Assembly (NCBI GenBank): GCA_963700235.1
Contig: CAVOWT010000005.1
Span: 215,057-279,056, forward strand
Reading direction: 5' to 3'
Origin: an uncultured Acidimicrobiaceae bacterium
GTDB taxonomy: Bacteria; Actinomycetota; Acidimicrobiia; Acidimicrobiales; RAAP-2
DNA length: 64,000 nt
Shown: piece after piece, positions 26,914 to 58,514 of the stretch
Layout of the letters: the number at the start of each line of letters is the position of its first letter
How positions within the stretch are numbered: position 1 is the stretch's first letter
The notes under the pieces: model-generated
Told to the model about the DNA's origin: nothing
Databases searched by the model: none
What the model saw: only the letters and a program-made list of their open reading frames with translations
Position numbers and translations under genes: made by a program

Positions 26914-27178
26914 GTATAAAACTGACAGGGGAGAGAGGGAGACGCGCAGCCAAACGGGCCAAAACCCCCACGCCGGAGCGCGCCGGAAGGCCAGAGCCAA
27001 GGAGCCCAGACCCCGGGACCACGACCGCAACAGGCCGGGGCACCAGGGCGAACGGCCGGAACCCGGCAGCGGGCCGGGCGGCCGGACGGCGCGAGGGCCC
27101 CACCGGAAACGGGGAGGGGCGGGTCGGCGGGGAGGGGGGGCTTAGGTGTTGATGGGCTCGGTTATTGAGTGCCCCCAA
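26914..27178 (+). repeat. GC-rich junction element, copy A1 (starts 3 nt after the tRNA)
   Basis: Near-identical to 36546-36790 over ~225 nt. Head GTATAAAACTGACA-GGGGAGAGAGGGAGA. Tail GAGGGCCCCACCGGAAACGGGGAGGGG..GGCGGGGAGGGG, then TTATTGAGTGCCCCCAACGGCAC. Confidence 0.85.
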
Positions 27179-28085
27179 CGGCACTTTGATTAGCTGAACT
27201 GCTTAGGTGGTGGTAACGGAGCGGGAGGTGAGATGGGTGGTATTGTATTGGTAGCGATTGGAGCGTAGGACAGCGAAGATGCGGAAGGTTGCTGGACGAT
27301 GAGGATTTTGGCATTCGATAGATCACTAGACAACGTGTGGGCGGTATGAAGGGGCAGGCAGTTTTGGCGGGATACGTGAAGAGGCTGACGAGATCGCAAG
27401 AAGTGGACAAGGAGTGGTGTGGATATACGAGAAGGTATGGCGGGTATGTAGGTGAAATACATCTTCACACAGAGCGATCGAAGCGGAGGGCTTCGTTCGG
27501 AATGGGCTATTTGCACTTCGCAATAGAGCGACAGTTTATTTGAGTGCATTTGCTTCATACCGCTGGGTTGGTGGGATACGCAGAGGTTTCAACAGGGGAT
27601 CAGAGGCTACGGGCGACTCTTCCGAGACTATGAGGTGGTTATTGTGCTGGTTTCGATTTGGAACTCGCACTTGGACAGGGCTCGACGAGGATTTAGGTTG
27701 TTAAGGTTCGTTCGTAATCTATGAGCTGAAGCGTTTCGCTGCACACTGTCAAATCCAATGGTTTGCTGCACGATCGTCAACTTGGTTGTGATTTTTGGCG
27801 ACTGACGATTGGTTACTGGGTTCGTTAATGAGTTTGCTTTGTCGGCATCGGCTGAACTCGCTCACCTTGGAACTTCGGCAAGAGCTGATGCTATTGCGTC
27901 GGCGAGAGTTGTTGTGTCACCGCTCACTTAGGTTTGAACACGATTCGTACCATTAGATGTTGGCTGAGTCTCATCGTTTCTAAAGCTGAATGCGCATCGA
28001 CGGAACTGAGTCGAATGTGCTCAGAAGGAGCTGAGGTAGCTCAAAACGCTGGGTGGCGGTTAGGCAGGAGTGCTAGAATCACATC

Positions 28086-28315
28086 ATGCGCATCAGCTAC
28101 GACGCTGAGGTGAACGCTGCTACATCCGTATCGTGGATGACATCGAACTTGGTGCATCGGTTACTCAGGTTCGGTGCTCAGTTCGCAGGTGACGCTGACT
28201 TCATCTCGACTTTGATGCTGAAGGACGATTACTCGGAATCGACGTTATGGGAGCAACGGGGGGACTCCGCTCGGAGACGCTTGCTCTGCAAAGCGCTACG
28301 GCTGACTGCTTCTGA
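28086..28315 (+). pseudogene. DUF2283-family small protein relic, at least 2 frameshifts
   Basis: MRISYDAEVNAA (frame 1), YIRIVDDIELGASVTQV (frame 2), LDFDAEGRLLGIDVMGATG (frame 3). Together they reproduce the DUF2283 pattern (..YD.E.DA.YI..... iDfD..G.l.GIe.l.A). Confidence 0.6.
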
Positions 28316-28966
28316 TCGCTGGGAGCGGGGCGGTTATCGGGGTATGGCTGAACGGCACATTCGGGCTACTCTGCGGAGCTGTTAGGCTGCTTTCTCCATT
28401 GCTGTTGGTAGCTACTCGGCGAGGCAGTTCTCATCGAGAATGGTTTTATCCACCACTTGCTGAATCAGGAAGTCGAAGACGAGGCAGACGCTGCTCATGA
28501 CGAGAAAAGAGGAATCTGAGGTTGGGCATCGGCATTGGGTGAACGATGCTCACGATTGCTTCAGCGATGACCAAAAGCGCTTCGGCGAGAAGAGGACGAC
28601 CGAACTAACAGCGGTGCTGTAAGCGGTGACTTCGTAGCGAACTCTTGTTCCGACGGGTTAGATGATGCTTCTCCGATTAGTGAGGGCTTGGCTATTTTGT
28701 TTGGGTTTAGGGAGGGTGTGAGCTTCTCCGAACTATTCGCTGGGTTGGTATGCTGTTACTTTGAATGAGGCTCGATCAGCACGCTCGGGTGATGCTTTCG
28801 GTAAAGAACTCGGACATGCGAAGGGCTGATCGTGAATCAATGTTTGTGGCAGCGGGATCGGTGAGTGCTGCTTGTAGCCGCCGCACCACCTCGTTTAGGT
28901 TAGCTCCTACTAGGACCGTCGCTCGATCTCGCTTCAAGTGACGAATGATCTATTCGGCTCGCTCAG

Positions 28967-29412
28967 CTATTCTTTACCATCGGCAGACGCTGTTAGTTGA
29001 TTGAGCGTGCTTCTGATCGCTGGCTCTGGGAGCGTTATCTCTCCGTGACGGGTTAGTCTGCACTCTTTGCTAGAACCTCCGCTTTCTTGGCATATCGGGA
29101 CGCTAGTTGTTGTGAGAATCCCCACTTTTTCGATCTCTCCGATTGACATCTCGGTGAGTTAAGTTCGCGGATCACCGTAAGGCGGAGCTTGTGGCAGGTT
29201 GTTTCGTAGGCTCTGAGTGCGTTATTCGTTGATTGCTGTGGTAAATGGAGCAGCGTTCTCTGGAGCGCTGTTTCAACGTCGATACTACGGTTGATGTTCT
29301 TCATGGCTCGCTTCAAGCGCTATCTCATTCTTCCGCAGCACTTGCTGAGCGGCTTTGTTTGCTTCGATCAGCTTCTGCATCGCTGTTGCTACGGTTTCGA
29401 TGGTGCTGGACA
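28967..29412 (-). pseudogene. Possible disrupted helical/HTH-like ORF
   Basis: Abutting minus-strand pieces: MSSTIETVATAMQKLIEANKAAQQVLRKNEIALEAS.. (stop), then MKRAMKNINRSIDVETALQRTL..RLTVIRELN.. and MSIGEIEKVG.. in shifted frames. The plus strand is T-rich and A-poor, consistent with minus-strand coding. No family assigned. Confidence 0.3.
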
Positions 29413-29598
29413 TAGGCTTTATGTGGAAGCGCTATTTATGAGGTTGATCTCTCTTCGGCGTCAGCTGGTTAGCGTTTACGGTGCTCCGAACGCTGGGTTG
29501 GTGGGGTATCGGGCTAGGGCAAAGGCGCTCATAGACAATCTGACGATTAGATGAAGACGATCGGGTCAACGGCGGACGTTGCCATACGATGCTGACTC

Positions 29599-30373
29599 AT
29601 GAATCTCTCACGTCGAACCTTGATCAAGGTTCCAGAGATCACAGTTCTGTTCTGGGTGATCAAACTGCTTAGTACCGCCATGGGAGAGGCGACGTCCGAC
29701 TATCTGGTCAATCGCATGAATCCCGTGGTTGCAGTGGGACTGGGGGGTATCGCTCGTGGTCGTGTTGGTCATCCAGTTTCGGGCAGACCGGTATGTGCCC
29801 TGGATCTACTGGCTCACCGTGCTGATGGTTGCCATCACCGGCACCATGGCTGCCGACGTTCTACACATTCAGTTTCACGTGCCCTATGCCGCATCAACGC
29901 CGTTCTTCGCTGTTGTTCTGGCCGTGGTGTTCATCGCCTGGCACCGGACAGAAGGAACGCTTTCCATTCACAGCATCTTCACTCCACGGCGTGAGCTCTT
30001 CTATTGGGCGACCGTCATGGCCACCTTCGCCATGGGAACAGCGCTGGGGGATCTGACAGCAACGACGTTCCACCTTGGCTATCTGGTGTCAGCATTTCTC
30101 TTCGCAGGTCTGATGTTGATCCCCGTCGTTGCCTATTGGGGCTTCGGAGCCGATGAGGTATTCGCCTTTTGGTTCGCCTACGTGCTGACCAGGCCGCTCG
30201 GAGCCTCCATCGCCGACTGGCTCGGAAAGCCCCATCGAGTCGGGGGCCTCGCCCTTGGTGATGGGATCGTTAGCCTTATCTTTGGCGTTCTTATTGCAGG
30301 ATGCGTCGCCTATCTGACGATGTCCCGTGAAGACGTACCTCGGGAAGGTACCGCTACGACCGAGATTGGGTAG
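29599..30373 (+). pseudogene. COG4705-like membrane-anchored protein, one frameshift at a G6 run
   Basis: MNLSRRTLIKVPEITVLFWVIKLLSTAMGEATSDYL..AVGLGG (frame of 29599). After GGGGGG 29742-29747 it continues as VSLVVVLVIQFRADRYVPWIYWLTVLMV.. (ORF 29729..30373), with six or so TMs. Confidence 0.6.
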
Positions 30374-31268
30374 TTCCGACTGTCCCCGATCGCCTCCAAC
30401 TGCCCTGCCCGGCGCCGGGCCAGTCGGATGGTACTGACCTGGCGACAACTCAAGGTCTACACCTATACGCACTTCCGCCCACTGTCTCCAAGCGGTGGGG
30501 CGTTTGAGCCGCTAGGTATCGGATTTGAGTTCGCCTAACCGACGCTGGTACTCGGGGCTTCGGCGAGCATTCCAGAACATCCGCAGGGACGACTCATCGG
30601 CGGTCTCGACATCACTGAATACGTTTTCGGCAACCAAAGTGCGGCGCATCTCTTCGACTGTCGTGGCGTCGATGGCCATGCTTGACCTTCCGTGGGAGGT
30701 TGCTCAATTAGCTTCCGAAGCGGCGTATCCCTCGACTCGAGTTCAATGTAACCGCTTCGTCACCTGTCGTCACCCCGAAGGGGCGACGTGATCGTGAGGC
30801 GACGATGTCACAGTGTGAGTCATGGGTGGCAAGGCGTGAGTCGGATCTATGAAGTGGTGGTCAGGGGAACACTCAAGAGAAGTAAATAGCCCGTGGAGTC
30901 GGGCCTGGTCGACATCGTGGTCGACGAGGTAGCTGGTTTCAGACAGTCAGTCAGTTACCAGCAGGTTGAACTCGACCTAGCCCAGAAGCTGGAGCTTAGA
31001 ACCCGAAACGGTCCTGGGCTCGCCGTGCCGATGTCGATGATGGTGGCGCAGACCCATCGCCAGCCGTGGAGTTCATCGGCGTGCTCGATACACGCCGCCA
31101 CGTCGGGCCTATGGCCTCCACGGGAAAAGGCAAATGCCCACGTCTGAGGCAGCGGTCGCGGCAACTACCCTCGACTCTGGTTGGTTGGACCCCGTTGAGC
31201 CACAGATTCCGCCGTCCGTGGCTCCGGGGCCCAGCCACCTACGTCCAGAAAGGCCCTATGCCGGTCCC

Positions 31269-31487
31269 TTAGACCTTTGGGGCCGTGACCCGCTGAACGG
31301 AGACCAAATCGGCCCGATGACCATCGCACGCCACGACGGTGTGCCACTTACAGGCAGCATCCTGGAACCGCCCCCGCCATCGGAGGGCGTATGGACAATG
31401 TTGGGCATGGCCAGTTCCATCCTCGGCCTGGATCATTCTGAAGCAGTGGGTGCTCTGGCAGGTGAAGGCGTTGGCGTAGTGCTCCAC
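31269..31487 (-). CDS. Hypothetical protein sharing its first ~10 codons and leader with 45798..46070
   Basis: GTG start. MEHYANAFTC.. versus MEHYAEAFTC.. in the paralogous module. The remainder is unrelated and Cys/His-rich. Confidence 0.35.
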   Translation of the reverse strand: MEHYANAFTCQSTHCFRMIQAEDGTGHAQHCPYALRWRGRFQDAACKWHTVVACDGHRADLVSVQRVTAPKV

Positions 31488-31659
31488 GTCGGGAGAGATT
31501 AGGGCGGAGGCGTGACAGGTGTCGCTTGCGGCTTCACGACGCCCGGAGGTCTGAACTGAGGTCGGGCGATTCCGAGCCGCAATCCCGACACTTCAGATTG
31601 ACACCACGGAGGGTTTTCCGCCAGGCGATCTCGCCGCCCATCTTCGCAAGGCACCGCGA

Positions 31660-32769
31660 TCAGCTTGGTGCCGATGGTGCCGATGGTGCCGATGGTGCCG
31701 ATGGTGCCGATGGTGCCGATGGTGCCGATGGTGCCGACCCACCCCGTTCAGCTTGACTGGCGGCCTGGCTCAGAGGAGTCACGAAATGGACTTCGGGAGT
31801 AAGCGCCAGGTCGTCATTCAGGATGCCCGCAAACTGGCAAGTCAAGGGTGGACGTTGGGCAGCGCTCTCGGAGTCGACACCGAAGTCACCTGATGCCTGG
31901 GTACAAGCAGCAATCAGCGAGCTGACGGCCGATGCCGAATCGATGGGCACGTTATAGGCCCCGGTCGTGAAGCTGATGACCTGATCCTCAAATCCATCAA
32001 CCGTGCAGTCCCAATCGGTTTGACCCGAGTAGTAACCCCCGAAGTCGTCGTAGCGCCACGACCCGTTGGCACTCTGACAACCCTGGACTGCCGCTTGGAC
32101 ATTTGAGGGAGGAAAGCTGAGGGCAGCGCTCGGAGTTCCCGGATTGTTGACCGGATCTCCGACGCCACTAACCACGCAGTCGGATGGTGGAGAGGTGCCT
32201 CCAGCCGACTGGATACTTCCACCGGCCGCGTGACACTGGGTTGTCAGTTGATCGGCGACCTCGGTGTTGGCTTGGGAGTAGCTGGCGTTGTCGGCCTGCG
32301 CTTCGCCTTGAAGTCGTGAGACGGCCTGATTGAATTCCGAAGGATCGCTCGATGCGAATTGAAGGGACTCCAGCATGCCGTCACTCTGGGGAACCTCCAG
32401 GTTGAATGTGCCGCCGGATAGGGTGCCGAACCTCTCCAGACCACCATTGAAACTCACACCGATCGAAGATCCGTTCACAACTCCGGAAACGGAGGTGGAC
32501 TTGGTACTGGTGGTTCGGCTCGGCGGTGCACCGGAAAGTGTGACCAAGGTCATCGTGCCATCGAGCATTCCGGCAGTTGGACTCCACTGGATGAGGGCGG
32601 CGCTCTCTGGTCCCGTTGCGACGTAGTCGGATCCAACGGATGGAGATCCTGAATAGAACAGACCGAAGTAGACAGCTATGCCTGCTATGACGGCAGCGGT
32701 CACCCCGAAAATGACTCTGAGCCTCACTTTCGAGGTCCTTCCCGTCCGGGCCCCTCTGGGAAGGTGCAT
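31660..32769 (-). CDS. Membrane-anchored extracytoplasmic protein with C-terminal (SAP)n repeat
   Basis: 369 aa. N-terminal TM VIFGVTAAVIAGIAVYFGLFY, Ser/Gly/Thr-rich ectodomain with paired Cys, and a C-terminus SAPSAPSAPSAPSAPSAPSAPS encoded by a 9-bp tandem repeat. Confidence 0.65.
   Translation of the reverse strand: MHLPRGARTGRTSKVRLRVIFGVTAAVIAGIAVYFGLFYSGSPSVGSDYVATGPESAALIQWSPTAGMLDGTMTLVTLSGAPPSRTTSTKSTSVSGVVNGSSIGVSFNGGLERFGTLSGGTFNLEVPQSDGMLESLQFASSDPSEFNQAVSRLQGEAQADNASYSQANTEVADQLTTQCHAAGGSIQSAGGTSPPSDCVVSGVGDPVNNPGTPSAALSFPPSNVQAAVQGCQSANGSWRYDDFGGYYSGQTDWDCTVDGFEDQVISFTTGAYNVPIDSASAVSSLIAACTQASGDFGVDSESAAQRPPLTCQFAGILNDDLALTPEVHFVTPLSQAASQAERGGSAPSAPSAPSAPSAPSAPSAPSAPS
31667..31738. 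repeat. 9-bp tandem repeat GGTGCCGAT x7 plus one variant unit
   Basis: Perfect units at 31667, 31676, 31685, 31694, 31703, 31712 and 31721. Variant GGTGCCGAC at 31730. In frame within the 3-prime end of CDS 31660..32769. Confidence 0.95.
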
Positions 32770-32815
32770 GCTATCGCGTGTAGTGCTATAGCAAGCAGCC
32801 CGTCACATTGGATTC

Positions 32816-33073
32816 ATGTCTCCGGCTGGCCCGGCCGCCCAACGGTCCCCCATCGATCTCGCGTTCGGGCGGGTGCTGCGATCCTTGCGCCTTGAACGAG
32901 GTCTCTCCCAAGAGGGACTTGGGAATGCGAGCGGCAATGGCCGCACTTACGTCGGCCAGTTGGAGCGGGGAGAACGTGGCGCCTCGCTCAAGACCGTCTT
33001 CGCCCTTTCAAACGTGTTGGACGTAGCGCCGTCCGAAATAGTCCGCAGGGTTGCCAAAGACTTGAAGGGATAG
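32816..33073 (+). CDS. XRE-family helix-turn-helix regulator
   Basis: 85 aa. LRLERGLSQEGLGNASGNGRTYVGQLERGERGASLKTVFALSNVL is a classic Cro/C1-type HTH. Divergent from 31660..32769 with a 46-bp spacer. Confidence 0.8.
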   Translation: MSPAGPAAQRSPIDLAFGRVLRSLRLERGLSQEGLGNASGNGRTYVGQLERGERGASLKTVFALSNVLDVAPSEIVRRVAKDLKG

Positions 33074-33124
33074 CAAAAACCGGTACCACGGACTGCCGGA
33101 CGTCGTCCGGACCGACCGATTGAC

Positions 33125-33340
33125 CTACCTCAGGCGGCCCCGGGGGACCGAGCGACTTGAGGATCGATGGCCCACGAGGGGTGGCCGATGTTGTGGACCT
33201 TGAGAGGAGAAGCCTCCCAGCCGTAGCCACATTCGTCGCATGTCCACGCTACGGAGGACTCCGTGCTGTTCCTGGATCCGGCGGAACGGCGTCTTTGCAT
33301 CACACCGCGGGCAGATCAGGCTCAAACTGCTGGGCTCCAT
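33125..33340 (-). pseudogene. Small zinc-ribbon protein, frameshifted copy of 47733..47915
   Basis: MEPSSLSLICPRCDAKTPFRRIQE.. matches MEPSSVSLVCPRCDEKTPFRRIQD... The second Cys pair (..WTCDECGYGWEASPLKVHNIGHP) is only readable in another frame. Confidence 0.6.
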
Positions 33341-33803
33341 GAGTCGCTACCTCCCAACGTACACATCTCCTGCGATTGTTGTAACCCAGCCTCAGCTCGG
33401 GTCATTCCCATCGCCCGCCAACCAGCTTTCCCGGACCTGGTGGCACCCCAGCGGGTCCGGGTCCAATCGGAGGCCACCCATGACTCCGGCTCCGAGAAGT
33501 GCGCTCGGGCCAGCACCGCTCGTGCAGCCAGGTCCTCCAGGTGCCGGCGGACTGACGTGTGCGGCAGGTCGAGGCGGGCAGCGAAGGTGGCGGTGGTCAT
33601 CATCGTACTCGGTGGCCAATGCCAGTTCGAGCACCCTCCGCCGGATTGGGTGCATCCCGTCGAGGGGCACCTGGGCCAGGAGCGAGCCAGATCTCCCGAT
33701 CCGAGACCCCGAGCACCCTGAGAGCGCACCAGCAGCTGACCCAGCTGCCCCAGGAGCCGGCCGATACCCTCGGGCGGTGGCACCCGGAGGATGGCATCCC
33801 CCT
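33322..33803 (-). pseudogene. C-terminal fragment of a winged-helix protein, truncated by the IS21 element and internally frameshifted
   Basis: Minus-strand pieces ..LDGMHPIRRRVLELALATEY.. and ..MTTATFAARLDLPHTSVRRHLEDLAARAVLAR.. (wHTH-like). The reading frame runs straight into the IS21 terminus at 33804. Confidence 0.4.
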
Positions 33804-33866
33804 TGTGAACGCTCATCCAATCCAGCAGCGCGCGATCGTCGAAAACGACAGCACGTTGGTAGTCGG

Positions 33867-34685
33867 TCAGTCTGCCTGAGTCCTCGTGGGCTTCGCCACT
33901 GATTCGGTGTTCCTGGTGCGGCGGGTCCGGGCCTTCGCGTCGTGGAGCCGGTAGCTCTCGCCCTTGGTCTCGATGATCCGGCAGCGGTGGGTCAGGCGGT
34001 CGAGCGTGGCCCCGGTCAGGCGCTCCGAACCGAGCACCTCCGTCCATGACTCGAAGGGCAGGTTGGTGGTGACGATCATCGAGGTCCGCTCATAGGCGGT
34101 GGCGATGACGTCGAACAGCAGCTCGGCCCCGACCTTGGAGGCGGGCACGTAGCCGAGCTCGTCCAGCACCAGCAGATCGAGCTTGGCCAGGTTGGCCTTC
34201 AGCCGCAGGAAGGTGCGTTCGTCTCGAGCCTCGATGAGCATGGTGACCAGCTCGGTGGCCCGGAAGAAGCGCACCCGATAGCCCTTGGCGCACGCCTCGG
34301 CCGCCAAGGCCGTGGCCAGGTGGGACTTGCCGGTGCCCGGATTCCCCACCAGCAGGAGGTTCTCCCGCTTGTCGATGAACTCGCACCGGGCCAGCTCGGC
34401 CACCAGCACCTTGTTGACGCTCGGCCGGGCGGCGAAGTCGAAGCTCTCCAGGGTCTTCATGGTCGGGAACCGGGCTGCCTTCAGGCGCCGCTCGGCGGAC
34501 CGCTTCTCCCGGTCCAAGAGCTCCAGCTCGCACAGCTGCAGCAGGTAGCTCAGGTGATCGACGTTGTCACGGGCGGCTTGGGCGGCCACCTTCTCGGCCT
34601 CGGCGCCGACGGTGGGCAGGCGCAGGACCTTCAGGTGATGGCGCAAGAGCACCAGGGACTTGGACTCCAGGGACTTCATGGTCAT
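33867..34685 (-). CDS. istB: IS21 helper ATPase IstB
   Basis: 272 aa, Walker A GNPGTGKSH, ..LLVLDELGY.. (Walker B). Overlaps the istA stop. Confidence 0.9.
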   Translation of the reverse strand: MTMKSLESKSLVLLRHHLKVLRLPTVGAEAEKVAAQAARDNVDHLSYLLQLCELELLDREKRSAERRLKAARFPTMKTLESFDFAARPSVNKVLVAELARCEFIDKRENLLLVGNPGTGKSHLATALAAEACAKGYRVRFFRATELVTMLIEARDERTFLRLKANLAKLDLLVLDELGYVPASKVGAELLFDVIATAYERTSMIVTTNLPFESWTEVLGSERLTGATLDRLTHRCRIIETKGESYRLHDAKARTRRTRNTESVAKPTRTQAD

Positions 34686-36187: not shown

Positions 36188-36329
36188 CCTTCTCCCATCT
36201 CCTCGGCCAGCCCGTCCGAGAAAGCCTCGGGGAGGGCCGCCGCGAAGGCGGGGATTGTCAGGTGCTGCCGTTTTCGATGATCAAAATCGCATCAGGGGTG
36301 CTGCCGTTTTCGATGAGCGTTTACATTCG

Positions 36330-37674: not shown

Positions 37675-37680
37675 AGGCCC

Positions 37681-47528: not shown

Positions 47529-47732
47529 ACCCCTGACGCGGCCGGACGAGATTCGCCGGAGCGTGGGGGCCTCATTCAAGACTGTCTTTGCCCTTTCAAA
47601 TATTCTGGGTGCGGAGCGTCCGAAATCGTCCGAAGGGTTGCAAAAGACCTGAAGGCGTAGCAGCTAGGGGTATCCACCGACCGCCGTCTGGGCCCGACCG
47701 ATTTGCGGCCTAGGCGGCTCCGGGGGACCGAG

Positions 47733-49597: not shown

Positions 49598-49919
49598 TCG
49601 CCCGATCCTCCGTGGCCCGACCAGACGACCAAGACCCCCGCACACCTGACCCCTGATCTGCCGGCCCGCCCATCCACCACCCCTGAAACGCCACAAAATC
49701 CCAGGTCGCTTCCGACCCCAATCGCCAGCGCCGCCCGTCACGGCCAGTGGTGGACCCTAGGCCCTTGCCCCCTTCCCAGCCCCCCCACGAAAGGCTCTTC
49801 GCCAAAATTTCACTTCGGCTCAAATCGCGCGCGCACCGCCTCGCCCCTGGTCCCGGGCCTTGTCTGCCTTCCCGCCCCCGGGACCCGTCCCGGTCGATGC
49901 CGTCGGTCCTGGCCTTCTC

Positions 49920-49942
49920 GCCGTGGGCACTGCCGTGGGCAC
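49920..49942 (+). repeat. Duplicated tRNA-Arg 3-prime-end fragment (att-like direct repeat)
   Basis: CTGCCGTGGGCAC at 49930-49942 is identical to 26900-26912 (last 12 nt of the tRNA plus 1). It is preceded by a second tandem GCCGTGGGCAC (49920-49930) and followed at once by element B1. Confidence 0.8.
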
Positions 49943-49943
49943 C

Positions 49944-50179
49944 ATGTGATCTCGCGAGGGGAGAGAAGGGCCTAGGGCCGCGAGTGGAACAAAACTGCCG
50001 CGGACAGGGCTCCGACGCCAGGGGACCGGACCGCAGCAGGCCAGACGCCGGGGCAACCGGCGCCCGGCCGGAGTGGGAAGGCGCCAGACGGCCAGGCGGC
50101 GGGAGGGCCCCACCGGAAACGCGGAGGGCAGGCGGCGGGGAGGGGCTTGGAAGGTCCTTATTGGGTGCCCCTCAACGGC
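49944..50179 (+). repeat. GC-rich junction element, copy B1
   Basis: Head ATGTGATCTCGCGA-GGGGAGAGAAGGG. Tail GAGGGCCCCACCGGAAACGCGGAGGGCAGGCGGCGGGGAGGGGCTTGG, then TTATTGGGTGCCCCTCAACGGC. An inverted copy lies at ~57865-58074. Confidence 0.8.
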
Positions 50180-50252
50180 TGTGTCCTCAACCGGTCATCG
50201 CAACACCCCACTGATTGGCGAACAATGAGTTCGTCGATCAGGAGGTGTCAAA

Positions 50253-51383
50253 GTGTGGAAGCGTTTTCGGAGGAAGACCAGAAGACGATCTGGGACATGC
50301 CGGACGAGGGAGTGCCCCGTCAAACGCATTGCCAAGCATCTGGGGCGGCAGAACGTGTCACTCAGGAAGTTCATCGCTGACCACGGCGGAAGGCGACCTA
50401 CTCCCCGGGAACGATCGGAACTTCGTCTATCGCTCCAGGAACGCGAAGAGATCTCCCGAGGTCTGGCCGCTGGTCTGTCTATCCGGGCCATCGCGGCGGG
50501 ATTAGGGCGGTCTCCTTCAACTGTTTGTCGTGAGGTGAACAGCAACGGTGGCCGGCGAAAGTATCGAGCGCTCCAGGCTGACCGAGCAGCTCTGAAGCGG
50601 GCATCGCGTCCCAAGAGGGCGAAACTCTCCGCCGGCGGCTGCGCTCGACGGTTGAACGGAAGCTCGAGGCCAGGTGGTCACCGGAGCAGATCTCGGCGCG
50701 GTTGGCTGACACCTACCCCGACCGCCCGGAGATGCAGGTGTCCCACGAGACCATCTACCAGTCCCTCTTCGTCCAGGGCCGTGGTGCGCTGCGAAAAGAG
50801 CTGCACACGTGCCTAAGTGGTTCTACCCACAGACCTTGTTGACGCGGAGATCCCCCAGATGAAGTGAGCCCCCGAGGCAGTGTGGAGCTGTCTACACAAC
50901 CACACAGCCCCCGGGAGGCTCACCATGCACCGTAATGCTCCACTTGCACCTGAAGGCCGACTCCGCCTTTGCAACCTGATCGAGCCCCACAGTCGATACG
51001 TCATCCTCTTGAGGCTTCCCAACGGGCACGGGGCCGAGTCAGTACGAAAAGTGATGACCAAACGCATCCTGACCCTGCCGGCCCAGCTGCAACGATCGGT
51101 CACCTGGGATCAAGGCAAGGAAATGGCCGAACACGTCCAGTTCACCGTCGACGCCGGTGTCGAGCTCTACTTCTGTGATCCGAAGAGCCCATGGCGACGC
51201 GGAAGCAACGAGAACACCAACGGACTGCTCCGTCAGTACTTGCCCAAGTCGGCCGATCCTTCCCAATGCACCCAACGAGAACTTGACGCCATCGCACGCT
51301 CACTCAACACACGCCCTCGACAGACCCTCGAATGGATGACACCATCAAAGGCGTTCGCCGATGCCGCTGCGATGACCGGTTGA
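50253..51383 (+). mobile_element. IS30-family transposase remnant (frameshifts plus internal deletion)
   Basis: HTH region ..LSLQEREEISRGLAAGLSIRAIAAGLGRSPSTVCREVNSNGG.., then ..WSPEQISARLADTYPDRPEMQVSHETIYQSLF in another frame. The catalytic C-terminus ..SRYVILLRLP..VTWDQGKEMAEH..YFCDPKSPWRRGSNENTNGLLRQYLPK.. is ORF 50880..51383. The segment that should carry the GHWEGD motif is missing. Confidence 0.8.
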
Positions 51384-51433
51384 GGGCATAGCACATTCGG
51401 GCGACTGGATAACGACCGAATCCGGCGTTCAAA

Positions 51434-52219
51434 TCAGGCGTTGAAGTGACGCTTCACGTCCGGCGCATGGCTAACACATTCGTCGACATCAGTTGTTGGC
51501 ATTCGGATCCAACATTTCTCAACCTCGCGATGACTCGGAATGGGTCCGAACGGATCTGTCTGTGCTCGGAGGAAGGTGATAGCCGCGGTTACCCTCCGAT
51601 CGGCACCGCAGTTGAACGGGCCCACCTTGATGAAGATGGAGGTGATGCCTTTTTCGATGGATTTCGTCGAAATGTTCAGTGCCTCAGCGATTGCCTTGTT
51701 GGACAAGCCGCGGGCCAAGTGCGCCAAGATATCGGTCTCCCGAGAGGTGAGGTCATTCATACCCGTTCTGTCGCCACGCCTAATGAAAGAGTCGACGACA
51801 CTCGGATCCATTACCGATTGCCCGGCCTTCACATCCCGTAGAGCTCCGACGAGTGTTGCGATAGAAGGAAGTCGCTCGTCGAACAGGAATGCGATCCCCG
51901 ATGATCCATCCCGGAACACATCGAGGGCGAATCCCTCGCAGCGATCGGAGACCACAGCAATCCCCAGCTCCGGGTGCAACGTCTTCAACCGACGGAGGGT
52001 CTCGACGGCAACCGATGTCGTGACGACCTGGGCCCGGACAGTAACGATAACCGCCTCTGGATCCAGCGTTTCGGTCATACAGAATAGATTGTCCATCCGG
52101 TCAGTCCGTCCCACCACCTCGACTCTGGGCACTCGAGCCAGGAGCGAAACAAGCCCGTCACCGATTAGAACACTGTCAGACGCGATTACCACCGTGAGCG
52201 GATCCGCCTTGGTCGACAC
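51434..52219 (-). CDS. LuxR/NarL-type regulator with atypical receiver domain (paralog of 38520..39311)
   Basis: 261 aa. LTSRETDILAHLARGLSNKAIAEALNISTKSIEKGITSIF (LuxR HTH). Receiver-like N-terminus has VVIASDS and AVIVTVRAQ in place of the acidic pocket and phospho-Asp. Confidence 0.75.
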   Translation of the reverse strand: MSTKADPLTVVIASDSVLIGDGLVSLLARVPRVEVVGRTDRMDNLFCMTETLDPEAVIVTVRAQVVTTSVAVETLRRLKTLHPELGIAVVSDRCEGFALDVFRDGSSGIAFLFDERLPSIATLVGALRDVKAGQSVMDPSVVDSFIRRGDRTGMNDLTSRETDILAHLARGLSNKAIAEALNISTKSIEKGITSIFIKVGPFNCGADRRVTAAITFLRAQTDPFGPIPSHREVEKCWIRMPTTDVDECVSHAPDVKRHFNA

Positions 52220-52409
52220 GCACTCATTCCCTTATGCCAACAGGTCGCAATAGCTGTTGCCCAGCACGCGACCTCTCTGTCACCATACGCTCCCCCCTCC
52301 CCGTTATTCCGCATCCACGTGAAAGCTGGCACTGTGCCAGGTACGAACAGGGCCTTCGCCCTCCAAAGACTTAGGCCCTACCCTCCATCATCCGTGTGGC
52401 ACAGTAGGG

Positions 52410-52691
52410 CTAGGGCCCTGGCGTGCCGGTGCGATCCTCGTCATGGACACGGTTGAGAGGGATATCGAAAGTGGTGTAGGCGTGAAATGCCAACCGGTTA
52501 CCTGGGACGGGGGGTCTCCCGCCGTATCGTGCGACCACGATGGGTGCCGGAATGAAAAGATGCTTGACGAAAAACCGATCAGCCTTGAGGCTAAGGAACT
52601 CCACGACTTCGTCCATCGTCAAGGCCGATGGGCCCGGGGTGGACTCAGGGCGCGTCACGACCTCCCCGTGGTAGTCCAGGTTCAGAACCAA
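52410..52691 (-). CDS. Hypothetical protein; a related fragment lies at 36860..37048 (-)
   Basis: 93 aa. ..LTMDEVVEFLSLKADRFFVKHLFIPAPIV.. resembles MTVDEVVQLVLRLKVGQFVVELLVIFMVV at 36860-37048. No family recognised. Confidence 0.35.
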   Translation of the reverse strand: MVLNLDYHGEVVTRPESTPGPSALTMDEVVEFLSLKADRFFVKHLFIPAPIVVARYGGRPPVPGNRLAFHAYTTFDIPLNRVHDEDRTGTPGP

Positions 52692-52861
52692 GACTGATCG
52701 CTCAGCCGGCTCGTCGAAGGGTGACTCCTATCACCGGGTCAGGGGGATACCCACAGTGCTGCAAAGCGGCATCGTCGGAATTGGTTTCGTAAATCGGTCG
52801 AGTCCTTCGTCGGACGGACCTGGAGCCCGGTGGAGAGTCAGCCATATTGTTTGGACTCTGT

Positions 52862-53474
52862 TCAAAGGGGAGTGCCGGTCAGCCGACCGCTCGGGACCGT
52901 CCGTCCGCACATAACGAGCGCTAGGTCTTCGGCTGCTCCTCTCAGTAGCTGTCCTGATCCGTAGGACCAGGCAAGGTCGGTGGCCTGGAAGAGCCGCCCT
53001 CCAATGTCCGTGCCAAAGTGCTCGTGACCGTTTCCCTTGGTGAGGTCGTCAAGTACAACACGGATTGCAATCATCAGAGACAATGCGCGTCTCACCGACG
53101 GGCACGGTCACGTCGAGACCATGGATGACCGCGTGGTTGAGGGCTCCGTGGTAGCCCCCTCCGGGTGGAGTCCAATGGTGGAGCACGTCCGAGCCCAGGT
53201 CGGCGACAAGTTGGGTAGTTGGAAGCTCCGCATCCTTGCTGGCGATCTCATTCGACAGACAAGTGAAGTCGTATCCGCAACGCTCAAGCTCTGCTATGAA
53301 CTCGCCCTCCGAATACCGAACCGGCATGGTCATGTGAGCAACCACTTCGCGAACCCGCCAACCGGCACAGAGCGATTCTGTATCCCACGTTGCATCGGAG
53401 GCAGTTGAGAGTAGACCGGAAAGGGCCAAGAACTGAGCGGCCACCGCGGCTTGCAGTTCAGCATCATCGATCAA
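52862..53474 (-). pseudogene. DinB/mycothiol-dependent maleylpyruvate isomerase-like (TIGR03083-type) protein, one frameshift
   Basis: N-terminal ..SLCAGWRVREVVAHMT..HHWTPPGGGYHGALNHAVIHGLDV.. (ORF 53049..53474) continues in another frame as ..AIRVVLDDLTKG..ATDLAWSYGSGQLLRGAAEDLALVMCGR (ORF 52862..53095). Confidence 0.65.
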
Positions 53475-53755
53475 GCGGTCACCCCTGGGTCTCGAACCTT
53501 CAGATCTCGGAGACTCCGATGGTGGACAGTCTCGGATCTCAGCGATGTACCCGAACAGGGTATCCCCGAACGCTTAATGCACGTATGATCCATTTGGTAT
53601 CTCAGTGAGGACCAGTCGGCTTCTCTCTTCTTCAATCCGCCTCCAGGGCCGAAGAGAAGTGCCAATGCGTCGACTTGGACGGTCTCATCGAATCCGAGCT
53701 GATCATCGATGATGTGGAGGGTTGCTTTTCTCTCATCGGACATGCCTTCCTCCTT

Positions 53756-55894
53756 TCATCGGTGGTTGATGTTGTGAGCGGCGAGATCCCAACCGGGGCT
53801 CTTGGCATCGTCGGCGCAGTGCCCAGCTGGCGATGCGAGGATTCGGATGGCGTCAATGTCGCTGGCGATCCCGATGAGGACAAGTTCATCCCCGCCTTCC
53901 AGCACTGTGGACCCCTCGGGCACGACGAGGTCTTGATGCCTTTGAATGGTGGTCACGATGATGCTGATGGGCAACCTTGCCTCGCGAAGAGATCGTCCCG
54001 CCAGCGGGGACCCGGCCTCGATGAGCACCCGGTCTGAGCCAGTTGGCTCGCCCTCGGCATTCACCCGTTGCAGGCTGGCCAGGAGACCCAGGCGGTAGCC
54101 CCTGACCACATCGGACGTGGCAATCGTGCCGACCACCCTCCGGTCCGAGTCAAGGACCGAAACCCAGTGCTGGGCCGAGGTAGTCATGGCATCAACTGCG
54201 ACATCAAGGAACGCGGACTCCGACACCGTCGCTGCCGACACATCCACGACCGATGCGAGCCGCCACTCGGGACCTTCCTTGGCCTCGTCGAGGCTGCTCA
54301 AGGAGACTGTGCCTTCGAACCGGCCCTGTTCGTCCACGACAGGCGCCTCGGCCAGCCCGTGCTCTATGAGCTTCTGACGAGTGGTCCCCGCCGACGTCCC
54401 GCCCGTGATGATCAGTCGGGGAGGCGCCATGGCCTGGCGGACCGGGACGCTGGCCAAGACGGGCATGCCCATCAAGAGCCTCTTGGCTGGGGCGTCGGCC
54501 CGTGACTTCAGTTGGCTTCGGTAGATGGTGTCGTCAGTTCGGCGCACGATGAACCACGCCAGCCCGACAGCGATCATGGCCGGACCGAGGATGGAGAGGC
54601 TCCCGGTCATCTCGGCCACCATCAGCATCACGGCCAGCGGCGCACGGGAGATCCCGCCGAAACAGCACATCATCCCAATGATCACGTAGGGCGCTGGGTT
54701 GTGGCCCATGGAGGGGATAACCGGTTCGAACAGTCGCCATACCGAGGCTCCGATAAAAGCACCGATGACCAGGCCGGGTCCGAAGATGCCGCCGGAACCC
54801 CCAGAGCCGATGGAAAGGCCGGTGGCCAGGATCCGGGCGAACGGCAGAATCAGAACGATCCACAATGGCAGAGTCAGTAGCTGACGACCGAGGCCCTGTT
54901 GAATCCATCCGTATCCGGTCCCGAGCACTTCAGGAATGGCCAAGGCCATGAGCCCGACAATCACTCCACCGACCGCTGGCTTGATCCAACGGGGGCTGTG
55001 CATCCGCCCGAAGAGGTCAGCGATGCCATAGAAGCTCTTGGCGTAGAGAAGGCCGATCAATCCACCGAGCACTCCTATCAGTGCGAACCACGGCAAACGA
55101 GCGGGGTCGGTGAAGTGGTAGCTGCCGGCGAAGCCAAAGATGGGCGTGAAGCCCACCACGGCACCGAAGATGATGTAGCCGACAAACGAGGCCACGAAAC
55201 TCGGTAGGAGTGCCTCTGCGTCGAAGTCATCTCGGTAGAGGATCTCGGTGGCCAAGACCGCCCCGCCGAGCGGGGCGCCGAAGATGGCCCCGATCCCCGA
55301 ACCGATCCCAGTGACAACTGCGACGCGGGCGTCGGCTGGACTGAGATCCAGCTCTCGGGCCAGTAGGGAAGCAAAGCCGGCGCTGATCTGGCCGGTGGGG
55401 CCCTCTCGACCTCCCGAGCCGCCCGAGCCGATGGTGAGGGCCGACGCCACGATCTTGACGATGACGGCGCGGAAGCGGATGCCCCGAGGATTGTGATGGA
55501 CGGCCGAGATCGCCGCGTCGGTACCGTGACCCTCCGCTTCGGGAGCGAAACGAAATACGAGGATCGATCCCAACAATGCTCCCAGTCCGACAACCAGTGG
55601 GAGCGCCCAAGGTCGGGCGAAGGACGCCGAAGCCCTGTGTCCGCCTTCACCGACCGGAGTTGGCACGTGGTAGCCGGCCAGTGTCCCGAGGAAGAAGTGG
55701 GTGCAGGCCAGGAGCACTTCGTAGAACACGACGGCACCGACGCCGGCCATGGTCCCGATAAGCACACCGAGAATCAACCACTTCTGCAGATAGGACGCAC
55801 CACCCAGCCACCGTGATGAACGGGTCATCATGGCCCGCCATGAGGTCCGACGGAAGACGGTCACGGCTTCTGATGTCCCATCTAGAGATCCCAT
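53756..55894 (-). CDS. ClC-family chloride channel/antiporter with C-terminal CBS pair and TrkA-C (RCK_C) domain
   Basis: 712 aa. GSGGSGGREGP and GGIFGPGLVIGA selectivity-filter-type motifs, about 10 or more TMs, two CBS-like repeats (..APVVDEQGRFEGTVS.., ..VSVLDSDRRVVGTIA..), then ..RVLIEAGSPLAGRSLREARLP..VVPEGSTVLEGGDELVLIG. The start may be internal (55831). Confidence 0.85.
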   Translation of the reverse strand: MGSLDGTSEAVTVFRRTSWRAMMTRSSRWLGGASYLQKWLILGVLIGTMAGVGAVVFYEVLLACTHFFLGTLAGYHVPTPVGEGGHRASASFARPWALPLVVGLGALLGSILVFRFAPEAEGHGTDAAISAVHHNPRGIRFRAVIVKIVASALTIGSGGSGGREGPTGQISAGFASLLARELDLSPADARVAVVTGIGSGIGAIFGAPLGGAVLATEILYRDDFDAEALLPSFVASFVGYIIFGAVVGFTPIFGFAGSYHFTDPARLPWFALIGVLGGLIGLLYAKSFYGIADLFGRMHSPRWIKPAVGGVIVGLMALAIPEVLGTGYGWIQQGLGRQLLTLPLWIVLILPFARILATGLSIGSGGSGGIFGPGLVIGAFIGASVWRLFEPVIPSMGHNPAPYVIIGMMCCFGGISRAPLAVMLMVAEMTGSLSILGPAMIAVGLAWFIVRRTDDTIYRSQLKSRADAPAKRLLMGMPVLASVPVRQAMAPPRLIITGGTSAGTTRQKLIEHGLAEAPVVDEQGRFEGTVSLSSLDEAKEGPEWRLASVVDVSAATVSESAFLDVAVDAMTTSAQHWVSVLDSDRRVVGTIATSDVVRGYRLGLLASLQRVNAEGEPTGSDRVLIEAGSPLAGRSLREARLPISIIVTTIQRHQDLVVPEGSTVLEGGDELVLIGIASDIDAIRILASPAGHCADDAKSPGWDLAAHNINHR

Positions 55895-56373
55895 CCCGTC
55901 GACCAGTCCTGCTCGGGTACCTCGCCGGCAGCGGCGGTGAGGCGCTGCAGCGAGTCGACCAGCGCGGCCTGTTGCTCGGACGGGATCGCCTCTAGGAGGT
56001 GGGCGATTTCCACCCGTCTCCTCTTAGTCACGTCATTCACCAGCTTGTGACCCTTTTTGGCCAAAGAAAGCCGGATCAGACGCCGGTCGCCCCGGTCGTG
56101 ACGGCGCATGATCAAACCCTTCTTGAGCAAGCGATCGCACATCCGAGTTGCGGTCGGCGGTGTCACATCGATCGCTTCGGCCAGCTCGGCCAGGCTCTGT
56201 GGGCCACGGGAGGCCAGGACAACCAAGGTGCGGTACTGGGTGAGCGTCACCTCTTCGGCCACGTCCCCAAGGGAACGGGCGGCCACGGCCACGAGTACTC
56301 GGCTGGCACTCAGCACGGCGTCGACGATGAGATCCCGACGAACTTCGACAGCAGGTCTGGTCTTAGTCGGCAT
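55882..56373 (-). CDS. MarR-family transcriptional regulator
   Basis: 163 aa. ..LTQYRTLVVLASRGPQSLAELAEAIDVTPPTATRMCDRLLKKGLIMRRHDRGDRR.. winged helix. Overlaps the ClC ORF start by 13 nt. Confidence 0.85.
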   Translation of the reverse strand: MPTKTRPAVEVRRDLIVDAVLSASRVLVAVAARSLGDVAEEVTLTQYRTLVVLASRGPQSLAELAEAIDVTPPTATRMCDRLLKKGLIMRRHDRGDRRLIRLSLAKKGHKLVNDVTKRRRVEIAHLLEAIPSEQQAALVDSLQRLTAAAGEVPEQDWSTGWDL

Positions 56374-56493
56374 ATACTAATGATTGTAGTAGCTAATCGA
56401 TGGCGTACGTTCCACTGCCAGCTCGTGTCTGACCGCAAAGCGCAAGTCCGGGGCAGCCTGGCTGCGACGCCTACAGCAGGAAGGCAACAAACT

Positions 56494-56721
56494 ATGGCGA
56501 ACCCGGGAGATGATCTTTGGGACGCCTATGTCGAGACCAAACGAGATGCTCTGACGGTCGTCATGAGAAGAACCTTTGAGGCCCACCACGACGATCCGAT
56601 GCAAGAGGTCATGGTGGGTCTGCGTCAAGAGCTTGAGCGGATCGGTCTTCCGGCTTCCGATACCTGGATGCTCCCTTATGCGGAAAGCATCTCAGGGGGG
56701 TATCAGGTTATGTTGAAGTAG
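56494..56721 (+). CDS. Hypothetical small protein
   Basis: ATG 56494 (CAGGAAGG ~11 nt upstream) within ORF 55999..56721. 75 aa MANPGDDLWDAYVETKRDALTVVMRRTFEAHHDDPMQEVMVGLRQELERIGL.. Divergent from marR. Confidence 0.4.
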   Translation: MANPGDDLWDAYVETKRDALTVVMRRTFEAHHDDPMQEVMVGLRQELERIGLPASDTWMLPYAESISGGYQVMLK

Positions 56722-56771
56722 CGACCCATTCCAGGTCGGAAAACGCTCCCTACCGTGTGACTGCGTGGCTG

Positions 56772-57773
56772 TTAGGCAATCGCAAGCAGCGTTACAACAA
56801 ATCCTGCGTAGCCAAGGATGATCAGCCATCCTGACCATGGACGCAAACCCCGTCCGGCATATGCCAGTGCCAGTGTTAATACCGTAAGGCCCACGTACCA
56901 CCCAGCGACGACGAAATCCACACCCGACAGGTGAGTCAAACCAATGAAGATCGCCGGGAGTAGAAGACCAACCGCCACATTTAGGGTATTGCTGTTTAGC
57001 CCCGTGCTTAGCGCTGCCTCTCCTCTTCCATTTCGCGCCAAGTGCACTGCGGCAACGGCATTTGGCAAACTAGTCACGGCCGCAAGTACCAGAGCGCCAA
57101 TGACAATCTCGGCAATGCCGAAGTGAAGACCGAGCGAGGACGCTCCTCGCTCCATTGCCACGCTTGCGGCGACAACAACCACAAGCGACATGCCGGCAAC
57201 CAGTATGTCAACAGGCCTGCCTCGTTGCGGGCGGATAGCGACCACAAGCTCCAACTCCTCTTCATCGACGGCCGAAAGAAGCCATCTCTTCCACCGCGAA
57301 GGGAAAGGGAACCGTCGAAGACCCGTGCGGTGTGCGGCGAGCAGCACAACATAAGGAAGCAACACAACGAGAACGAGCATGAATCCAACGGTGGGCCCGA
57401 CCACAGCAGTAACAGTAACGAGACAAACGAATGCCACCCACAGAGCGACCGTGCCGCCGAGCCAGATCACTTTCCGATGAAGTCCGAATCCTCCGGCGAC
57501 CACAGCCCCAAGACCCAACAACGCAGCAAGATTGAAAACGTTCGATCCAATGACGACCCCGGCCCCTACCGCTCGCTCGTTGTGGGCGAGCGCCGTGATC
57601 GAAGCCGTGATCTCCGGCGCGTCGGCGGCGAGTGCGGCAACCATTCCGAGCAAGGCCTCCGAAAGGCCCACCCGCTCACCGACGCGCTCGAGTCGGGAAA
57701 CCACTACCCAACTCATCCCCAAGCTGACAACTGCACCGGCGACAAATTCGTCAATTGAGACTCCGACTCCCAC
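56772..57773 (-). CDS. Ca2+/cation antiporter (CaCA family, YrbG-like)
   Basis: 333 aa with two alpha-repeat motifs (GSNVFNLAALLGLG and NSNTLNVAVGLLLP) and about 10 TMs. Confidence 0.8.
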   Translation of the reverse strand: MGVGVSIDEFVAGAVVSLGMSWVVVSRLERVGERVGLSEALLGMVAALAADAPEITASITALAHNERAVGAGVVIGSNVFNLAALLGLGAVVAGGFGLHRKVIWLGGTVALWVAFVCLVTVTAVVGPTVGFMLVLVVLLPYVVLLAAHRTGLRRFPFPSRWKRWLLSAVDEEELELVVAIRPQRGRPVDILVAGMSLVVVVAASVAMERGASSLGLHFGIAEIVIGALVLAAVTSLPNAVAAVHLARNGRGEAALSTGLNSNTLNVAVGLLLPAIFIGLTHLSGVDFVVAGWYVGLTVLTLALAYAGRGLRPWSGWLIILGYAGFVVTLLAIA

Positions 57774-57864
57774 GTCGGCTCCGTTTCGCTGTTGAATACC
57801 TTGCCGACGAGGTCTCCCGGCTATCCGCGCTGTAATCTACCAATTGGTCAATTGCCGCATGGAT

Positions 57865-58074
57865 CCAAAAGGGAGTGCCCGCCCACAACCTTCGCCAAAC
57901 TCCTCAACCCTCTCCCGCCGCCTGCCCTCCCGGCCGCCTGGCCGTCTGGCGCCTTTCCACTCGGGCCGGGCGCCGGTTGCCCCGGCGTCCGGCCTACTGC
58001 GGTCCGGTCCCTTGGTGTCGGAGTCCTGTGCGCGGCGGTTTTGTTCCACTCGCGGCCCCAGGCCCCTCTCTCCC
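57865..58074 (-). repeat. GC-rich junction element, inverted copy B2 (with ~21-nt internal deletion)
   Basis: The reverse complement matches B1 (..CCGCCTGGCCGTCTGGCGCC..GTTTTGTTCCACTCGCGGCCC.AGGCCC.TCTCTCCC) but lacks the CCACCGGAAACG tail motif. It is followed at 58075-58108 by a direct-orientation head, ATGTGATGTCGCGAGGGGATAAGGGATAAGGGGG. Confidence 0.75.
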
Positions 58075-58514
58075 ATGTGATGTCGCGAGGGGATAAGGGA
58101 TAAGGGGGTCCGAAACTCCCTACCCCGTAGGAATCGCCGCTGCCCCAGGTTCAAGACCTGCCGCCACCGGGTCGAATCATCAGGCCCGGGCGCCACACCG
58201 GAAAAAGGGAAGGGCCAGGGCCGAAACGGGGCCAGTCGGACGACATGCGAGTGGGATTATTTGGGTGTCATCTACCGGCATTCCCCACTTTGGTATGAGG
58301 GCGTCAAAGTGGGCACCTGAACCGTCTCGGTTCGTCGAGCGAGATCTCGTCGGATTCAGGCAGCTCGCCGGAGAAGTCCGTTTCGTCGGCTCTCTTCTCT
58401 GGCAGGCGTTTCCGCGTTCGGTCACATGAGCGGTGGCCAACGAGGAACCGGTTTTCCTCTTGGGTTTCAAACCTGGCGTTGACACAACCGATGTGCGCTC
58501 TCTAATCTTGTCCT

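Follow-up and report, generated by a model that had tools for sequence, protein, structure and literature searches.

Paired inverted ends and 15-bp direct repeats delimit cargo-carrying units downstream of a tRNA-Arg gene in an uncultured Acidimicrobiales bacterium

Results

The tRNA-Arg locus and its repeat family

This study concerns a family of GC-rich, noncoding repeats found on contig CAVOWT010000005.1 of an uncultured bacterium of the order Acidimicrobiales. The stretch of this contig that was analysed, 64 kb in length, is called the window here. A tRNA-Arg(CCT) gene is located at 26839-26912 on the plus strand (ARAGORN; Rfam tRNA, 66 bits), and downstream of it there are ~31 kb of accessory DNA with a GC content of 54-65% against ~69%. 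The metagenome-assembled genome (MAG) GCA_050011455.1 and several JGI metagenome contigs encode a TetR protein 100% identical to that of the window, and their flanks are 98-99.7% identical to it.

The family has six copies, designated A1, A', A2, B1, B2 and C. The first five, whose coordinates an earlier note on this DNA had given, are united by a MAFFT alignment and by an nhmmer profile, in which they have E values of 5e-54 to 5e-40. The sixth, C, is degenerate. It is found by nhmmer at 58075-58282 on the plus strand (E = 4.5e-25), and it aligns with the A copies better than shuffled sequences do (z = 3.5-4.9). At this position the earlier note had seen a 34-nt head (58075-58108), which is really the start of the full-length copy C. 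No further copies were found by nhmmer in the window, and there are none away from the same junctions in the 36 other loci compared. Every copy is at a junction of the accessory region, as had been proposed, and the neighbours are those described: tRNA-Arg, its displaced 13-nt 3' fragment at 49930-49942, and the end of an IS21-family insertion sequence (IS) at 36326, 3 nt from the tail of A'.

The arms, as we call the repeats proper, are ~200-260 bp long. At single-base reading each of them starts with GGGAGAG, the conserved arm terminus is GGGAGAGAGGG, and the termini are the best conserved parts of the copies, in line with the earlier description. A1 and A2 are indeed nearly identical (98.3% over 229 nt); within the arm they differ by a single substitution and a 2-nt indel. 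The tail of B2 has a 21-nt deletion between GGAGGGC repeats. A motif beginning TTATTG had been noted after A1 and B1. It is present there, as TTATTGAGTGCCCCCAACGGC at 27164-27184 on the 3' side of A1 and as TTATTGGGTGCCCCTCAACGGC between B1 and an IS30-like element. It is not limited to these two copies, since TTATTGRGTGCCCC.CAACGGC is also found after C and a related form is upstream of the GntR operon in a relative. The idea that this motif is an IS30 inverted repeat was dropped because it also occurs beside C and in that relative (L018). The family remains unclassified, as first stated. It has no match in Rfam, and blastn of A1 and B1 against plasmids gave none. The conserved 21-nt tail motif has chance matches only, one in genome contigs (185,579 representative genomes) and two in JGI metagenomes, with none in IMG/VR.

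Homology with the region upstream of GntR in the relatives L017 and L018 starts at ~58250, within C. The neighbourhoods of GntR (L017-L019) and of the exchanger (L014-L016) in other genomes have no family copies and no tRNA-Arg(CCT). A hairpin with a 10-bp stem, CCCCACTTTGG...CAAAGTGGGG, is found upstream of the GntR-ABC operon at 58285-58315 (~9365-9400 in L017 and L018). It is kept in relatives whose ABC ATPase is 88-91% identical, and may be a regulatory element or a terminator. Inside C, at 58140-58175, the stretch CCAGGTTCAAGACCTGCCGCCACCGGG resembles the T-arm and acceptor 3' strand of a tRNA (compare GCAGGTTCAAATCCTGCCGTGGGCAC). ARAGORN makes no call there, and the stretch may be what is left of another tRNA 3' fragment. 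Just 5' of the tRNA-Arg gene, at 26675-26793, there are ~7 tandem copies of a 17-nt unit (TGGCCGYCNTTGCCCGG). Comparison of the window with two other assemblies (L020 and L021) by blastn gives gaps and overlaps in this array, which suggests that its copy number varies by strain.

Pairing of the copies into units with 15-bp direct repeats

A single copy has no internal inverted symmetry. The earlier note had taken this asymmetry between head and tail to rule out a transposon, and had treated each copy of 210-265 bp as an element of its own. The relevant symmetry is instead between copies, which pair up as the left and right inverted ends of units of 8-10 kb. The unit E1 (26929-36545; 9,617 bp) has A1 as its left terminal inverted repeat (TIR; 26929-27142, plus strand) and A' as its right TIR (36330-36545, minus strand). 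Their first 15 nt are identical, and their identity is 74% overall, rising to 85% in the 101 nt closest to the tail. The unit E3 (49959-58074; 8,116 bp) has B1 (49959-50152, plus strand) and B2 (57865-58074, minus strand; nhmmer E = 1e-44) as its left and right TIRs, and these are 92% identical over 151 nt. The other two copies are left ends of older residents: A2 (36561-36790, plus strand) is the left-end arm of a resident block, E2, and C (58090-58282, plus strand) is the degenerate solo left end of an older element.

Both E1 and E3 are flanked by a 15-bp direct repeat. For E1, the sequence GTATAAAACTGACAG at 26914-26928 recurs with 15/15 identity at 36546-36560, between A' and A2. For E3, ATGTGATCTCGCGAG at 49944-49958 and ATGTGATGTCGCGAG at 58075-58089 agree at 14/15 positions (consensus ATGTGATsTCGCGAG), the latter filling the space between the end of B2 at 58074 and the start of C at 58090; the same pair is found in L032 and L033. 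All four are on the plus strand. These 15-mers directly adjoin the GGGAGAG arm termini with no gap, and what had been read as a 14-nt linker is this 15-nt repeat. The E1 and E3 15-mers are unrelated in sequence and have the same length and the same placement. Both begin 2 nt past the discriminator base, that of tRNA-Arg itself in one case and that of the displaced 3' fragment in the other, and both tRNA-linked arms (A1 and B1) begin 16 nt past the GGGCAC of the tRNA or of this fragment. A2 and C start 15 nt past the end of the preceding arm.

Presence and absence of the units between strains

Three independent assemblies of the same species have an empty site. These are the MAG GCA_050011455.1 from NCBI (L020) and two JGI assemblies (L021 and L026), all of which share the flanks and the TetR protein at the identities given above. 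They read tRNA, T, one 15-mer GTATAAAACTGACAG, A2 and the genes of E2, and there is no E1. At all three differences between A1 and A2 (the single-nucleotide difference, the 2-nt indel and the tail) they have the A2 state. The interior of E1 is absent from all other loci compared. Its DUF347 protein is recorded in exact form on a single contig; for proteins of E2, E3 and the flanks, several contigs have exact matches. Because the three assemblies read tRNA, one 15-mer and A2, we infer that E1 is a strain-specific insertion of 9.6 kb in the window strain. The event can be placed no more finely than within 26913-26970, because A1 is nearly identical to A2. All strains seen (L012, L032 and L033) have E3 and both its junctions. 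A strain comparison had been proposed as a way to find the native copy. It shows that A2 directly follows the tRNA elsewhere and that C is decayed and beside the native GntR upstream region; none of the copies is clearly native.

The copy of an IS256-family element at 43829-45233, which encodes a Mutator-type transposase (43908-45182), is also absent from L020, L021 and L026, and from L032. At its junction the strain alignments overlap by 9 bp. This is consistent with a 9-bp target duplication, and the element seems to have inserted recently, in the window strain alone.

The E2 block and the displaced tRNA fragment

E2 is bounded by a 13-nt repeat of the tRNA 3' end. The displaced 3' end of tRNA-Arg, CTGCCGTGGGCAC, is at 49930-49942 on the plus strand, with a partial extra copy at 49920-49929. 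CCA comes next (GGGCA-CCA-TG; 49930-49946), which means that this displaced, native copy has an encoded CCA end. The current tRNA-Arg gene reads GGGCA-CTG (26900-26916) and no longer encodes CCA; the 3' end of this gene would have come with the E2 block. E2 also contains a large serine recombinase gene at 39400-40903 on the minus strand, whose Resolvase, Recombinase and Zn_ribbon_recom domains are split over two frames. It is the sole remnant of a site-specific recombinase in the region, and it is frameshifted in every strain seen. There is no detectable right arm of E2 and no matching second 15-mer. The G-rich, T-poor stretch 49745-49921 was tried as the right arm and rejected (z <= 1.4 against shuffles, no nhmmer match). 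Because it is bounded by the 13-nt tRNA repeat, E2 probably entered by a separate integrase-type event, carrying an arm beside its own tRNA-like sequence.

Thymine depletion and polar motifs in the arms

On the head-to-tail strand the arms are nearly free of thymine. T makes up 0.5-1.3% of A1, A2 and A' (2 of 214 nt in A1 and 1 of 208 nt in A'), 3.6% of B1, 6.7% of B2 and 9.9% of C. The mean over the window is 17.7% (sd 4.6), and for the A copies the binomial P is ~1e-16. The content of A is near 20% and that of purines 59-67%. Even copies with only 62-74% identity have the T-poor composition and the termini in common. The T gradient parallels the apparent age of the copies, from the strain-specific E1, through E3 that is in all strains, to the decayed C. 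Because T content rises with apparent age, we suggest that active copies keep the T-free state and that it is eroded afterwards. Such ends may point to a constraint on end recognition or processing.

The pentamer CCGGA is tenfold enriched in the arms, in a single orientation and at homologous positions in A1 and A', and GGGNAGGG is enriched as well. Both were considered as polar motifs of the KOPS or TraB kind, but neither could be linked to a protein here, and this lead was set aside.

Coding and RNA readings of the arms

There is no conserved reading frame in the copies, as the earlier note had it. A coding function is ruled out by the 2-nt indel between the nearly identical A1 and A2 and by the T-free strand; because of the latter, no start or stop codon is possible in the arms on the head-to-tail strand. 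Scans of the arms for promoters and terminators found nothing. At the Rfam gathering threshold only the tRNA passes, and relaxed scans of both strands (E <= 10) gave sub-threshold miRNA-like hairpins only. Folding energies of the arms equal those of shuffles (z = +0.36 and -0.26), and in the alifold consensus structure many pairs are broken and the covariation term is positive, which is unfavourable. Thus, the lead towards a tRNA trailer or noncoding RNA (ncRNA) was not borne out.

Cargo genes and the search for a mobility enzyme

By Pfam, E1 encodes a DUF347 membrane protein, a secreted repeat protein, an XRE regulator, a Zn-ribbon protein and a truncated helix-turn-helix (HTH) open reading frame (ORF), and has an IS21 copy. 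E2 has regulators, a GGDEF protein, the frameshifted large serine recombinase and the IS256 copy. For E3, Pfam finds a LuxR regulator, MDMPI, a CLC channel, MarR, a Na/Ca exchanger and an IS30-like copy.

Searches of the ORFs (Pfam, NCBIfam) and of six-frame translations (Pfam; 27140-31660, 36790-38520, 39311-42200 and 45234-49930 at E <= 0.1) found no Cas1 (PF01867), PolB (DNA_pol_B) or tyrosine integrase (Phage_integrase) within 26.9-58.1 kb. In these Pfam searches of ORFs and six-frame translations, neither E1 nor E3 has its own recombinase. The rve genes here belong only to the IS21 and IS30 copies, each of which has its own inverted repeats. The ORF truncated by IS21, with a winged-helix-like C-terminus, was examined as the tail of a casposase and rejected, having no PDB match at E <= 10 and weak HTH matches only.

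Discussion

Proposed mode of insertion and order of events

On balance, we lean towards the view that the repeats are the DNA-level ends of tandemly inserted, cargo-carrying elements, which are mobilised in trans and have a casposon-like mode of insertion. Each insertion would occur at one place, the first 15 bp past position +1 after the tRNA 3' end, and those 15 bp would be duplicated. The 3' end of tRNA-Arg(CCT) would thus be a fixed anchor, or 'leader', for the elements placed after it, and a newcomer would land between the tRNA and the previous resident. Both kinds of junction, tRNA-15mer-arm(+) and the head-to-head arm(-)-15mer-arm(+), would follow from a newcomer landing next to the tRNA. 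The insertion itself may proceed by a ruler-type 15-bp staggered cut, positioned by the upstream tRNA leader as in casposons. Because no plausible enzyme is encoded in the units, the elements would be non-autonomous and moved in trans.

The order of events may be reconstructed in four steps. An early element would have left the decayed end C, and E3 would then have inserted into the native trailer. The E2 block would have arrived separately, by recombination within the last 13 nt of the tRNA, bringing its own 15-mer and A2. Finally, E1 would have inserted into the 15-mer of E2, in the window strain only. The resulting age order, newest next to the tRNA and oldest farthest from it, matches the T gradient.

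In a more specific form of this proposal, the units would be natural, non-autonomous carriers of cargo in Acidimicrobiales, derived from a casposon-like system or from a ruler-type transposase not yet described. Their T-free ends of 200 bp would be recognised in trans and inserted behind tRNA-Arg with a stagger of exactly 15 bp, giving a chronological stack of gene cassettes that grows like a CRISPR array. We put this form forward tentatively and regard it as doubtful. In that case, the chemistry of end processing would depend functionally on the T-free strand.

Several points weigh against insertion in the manner of casposons. Conservative recombination of a circular A'-15mer-A1 with tRNA-15mer-A2 gives the same end product. 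A1 is 98% identical to the resident A2 and only 74% to its partner A', and sibling attachment (att) regions fit this equally. No Cas1, PolB or other enzyme that explains a 15-bp duplication is present in 26.9-58.1 kb, and, with the family seen in a single species, comparison lends no support. E2, without a right arm and a second 15-mer, fits neither the TIR scheme nor the att scheme. An empty site could also result if homologous recombination between A1 and A2 had deleted the unit, or if the assembly had collapsed over the 57-nt stretch that is exact in both junctions. In addition, the published family 3 bacterial casposons are all at intergenic sites (PMC4779613).

Comparison with known systems

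Casposons, self-synthesizing transposons of families 1-4 with a Cas1 casposase, are the closest parallel. The casposase of A. boonei makes a 15-bp duplication, and it needs the 15-bp segment together with the 18 bp next to it, the latter being the 3' end of tRNA-Pro; this has been called a '15 bp yardstick' (PMC5137440). The TIRs of casposons measure 25-602 nt, with a median duplication of 15 bp (PMC4046053). Tandem casposons with a common duplicated segment, solo TIRs, and cohabitation with integrase elements at tRNA-Leu have been described (PMC4779613). Like casposons, the units here have long TIRs at both ends, within the published size range, and a duplication of 14-15 bp adjoining them (15/15 in E1, 14/15 in E3), if these repeats did arise by duplication. 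The upstream tRNA 3' end would likewise act as the leader that sets the target, in a leader-proximal tandem array with the strain-specific E1 nearest the tRNA. Further likenesses are the solo TIR remnants and the co-residence with integrase-type islands at the same tRNA. Casposons differ in having cas1 and polB. The units here have neither, and their cargo consists of ordinary transporter and regulator genes. Near-T-free arms are not described for casposon TIRs in the casposon literature examined, and a literature search for natural non-autonomous casposon derivatives, by that term, turned up none. We suggest that the units work like casposons; we do not call them casposons, as the defining genes are missing.

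Integrative islands that target tRNA genes and integrative elements of actinomycetes, which use a tyrosine or serine integrase and have attL and attR, share with this locus the insertion at a tRNA 3' end and the accretion of several islands at one tRNA, and here the displaced fragment at 49930-49942 and the serine recombinase pseudogene in E2 are of this kind. In such islands the flanking direct repeat is a segment common to attP and the tRNA gene, and the 13-nt tRNA 3'-end repeat around the E2 block is of a kind that would fit this. Unlike in such islands, the direct repeats of E1 and E3 are outside the tRNA, 15 bp long and different in each unit, and these units have inverted ends of 150-210 bp and no integrase gene.

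Other systems resemble the locus in single features. The ISTde1 subgroup of the IS1202 family has a DDE transposase and direct repeats of 15-17 bp (bioRxiv 10.1101/2022.12.17.520857), and is thus a bacterial element with a target duplication of about the right size. Only this length fits, since its inverted repeats are 24-26 bp long and begin with TGT and it has its own rve-type transposase, whereas the ends here are ~200 bp long and begin with GGGAGAG. The size differs as well, the IS length in the related ISAjo2 group being ~1.5 kb (PMC10132070). Tn7-like transposons, like these units, use a fixed site 3' of a conserved gene, have ends of 100-200 bp with several binding sites, and form tandem islands. 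Tn7-like elements also have a 5-bp duplication, TGT...ACA termini and tnsABC/tniQ genes, and none of these is present here. Miniature inverted-repeat transposable elements and repetitive extragenic palindromic repeats are, like the arms, small, noncoding, repeated and GC-rich, with no transposase inside the copy. Unlike them, the copies in the window are only at element ends, paired 8-10 kb apart, and without internal symmetry.

Alternative explanations

The alternative that survives best is that the arms are att-site arms of integrase-type islands whose recombinase has been lost or is elsewhere. The attP would be quasi-palindromic, made up of the right arm, a 15-bp core and the left arm. A tyrosine or serine recombinase would act in the core, attB would be the tRNA end, the core and the resident arm, and CCGGA would mark arm-type sites, for which its tenfold enrichment in one orientation at homologous sites in A1 and A' is suitable. 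This exchange gives the product that is observed, and the crossover is constrained only to 26913-26970. The near-identity of A1 and A2 makes E1 and E2 look like siblings, whose core could be common by descent. The 13-nt tRNA 3'-end repeat around E2 is a classical integrase signature, and E2 holds the large serine recombinase. However, this gene is frameshifted in every strain seen and there is no tyrosine integrase. The two 15-mers have unrelated sequences and fall entirely within the non-conserved trailer, beyond the tRNA, so the core would need to be tailored to each target. The left half of attB, the tRNA end, is also unlike the arm terminus. The overlap regions of tyrosine recombinases are 6-8 bp and those of serine recombinases 2 bp, not 15 bp between inverted sites, and inverted arms of 150-210 bp are not known as a feature of att sites. 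We consider this explanation unlikely, though a serious competitor.

It is improbable, in our estimate, that no dedicated mobility was involved and that local duplication, inversion and homologous recombination of a GC-rich trailer made the pattern, with the E1 polymorphism due to deletion between A1 and A2 or to an assembly artefact. Direct repeats of 229 nt at 98% identity lend themselves well to deletion and can be collapsed by assemblers of short-read metagenomes, and an IS-rich region promotes rearrangement. Against this, all three empty-site assemblies have the pure A2 state, which would require, in every case, a crossover within the first 57 of ~240 nt. The same three strains are without IS256 and so look ancestral rather than deleted. 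Moreover, there are two independent units with unrelated 15-mers of equal length and placement, and the T-free composition and the termini are kept between copies of low identity, which argues for constraint over drift.

Least credible of all is a structured ncRNA or a tRNA 3' trailer or processing element co-transcribed with the tRNA. In its favour, two copies come immediately after a tRNA 3' end, an intrinsic terminator cannot exist in a T-free stretch (making read-through from the tRNA promoter likely), and the conserved tail block has a GNRA-like CCG-GAAA-CGG hairpin. Against it, this hairpin is disrupted in B1, no Rfam family other than tRNA reaches its threshold on either strand, the folding energies and covariation are as poor as reported above, and half of the copies lie far from any tRNA, in inverted orientation.

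Significance

If the casposon-like mode of insertion is confirmed, a Cas1-like or equivalent '15-bp yardstick' system would move ordinary cargo that has no enzyme of its own, in bacteria, and the elements would stack newest-first behind a tRNA gene. This would extend the integration style of casposons and CRISPR adaptation to non-autonomous elements and to the Acidimicrobiia, and the filled and empty sites would be a natural pair for testing it. If an ordinary integrase is responsible, what remains of the finding would be a palindromic att site of an unusual kind, in a group that has been little studied.

Insertion sequences and minor features of the region

The IS21-family element inside E1 (IstA/IstB by Pfam; 33806-36326, minus strand) is not a member of the repeat family. 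Its ends, TGTGAACGC... and ...GCGTTTACA, agree with other copies of this IS, and no target duplication is visible at them in the window. IstB is 100% identical on at least 25 metagenome contigs with unrelated flanks (L002-L009 among the loci compared). This IS is thus active in the community. The IS30-like element in E3 has inverted repeats at 50153-50202 and 51368-51417.

E1 and E2 have a common right-hand module with 80-83% DNA identity (31458-31642 with 46041-46366, and 32978-33360 with 47566-47934), made up of the XRE-family regulator and the Zn-ribbon protein, whose gene is divergently oriented. The E1 homology stops ~445 bp before the IS21 insertion. At 31657-31746 there are ~8 copies of a 9-nt tandem repeat (TGGTGCCGA), which encode the (PSA)n C-terminal tail of the secreted protein (369 aa, minus strand). 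A small ORF with the motif (N/K)EL(D/H)DFVH.(H/Q)GRWA is common to E2 (36953-37087, ~160 nt 3' of A2) and E3 (52530-52650), with 72% DNA identity over 79 nt; it is a 44-aa gene call in L020 and L021. The GGDEF gene of E2 (41112-42960) is a single gene of 497 aa in L021 and of 404 aa in L020, and in the window it consists of two overlapping ORFs of 391 and 276 aa. Thus, the gene of the window strain is probably frameshifted.

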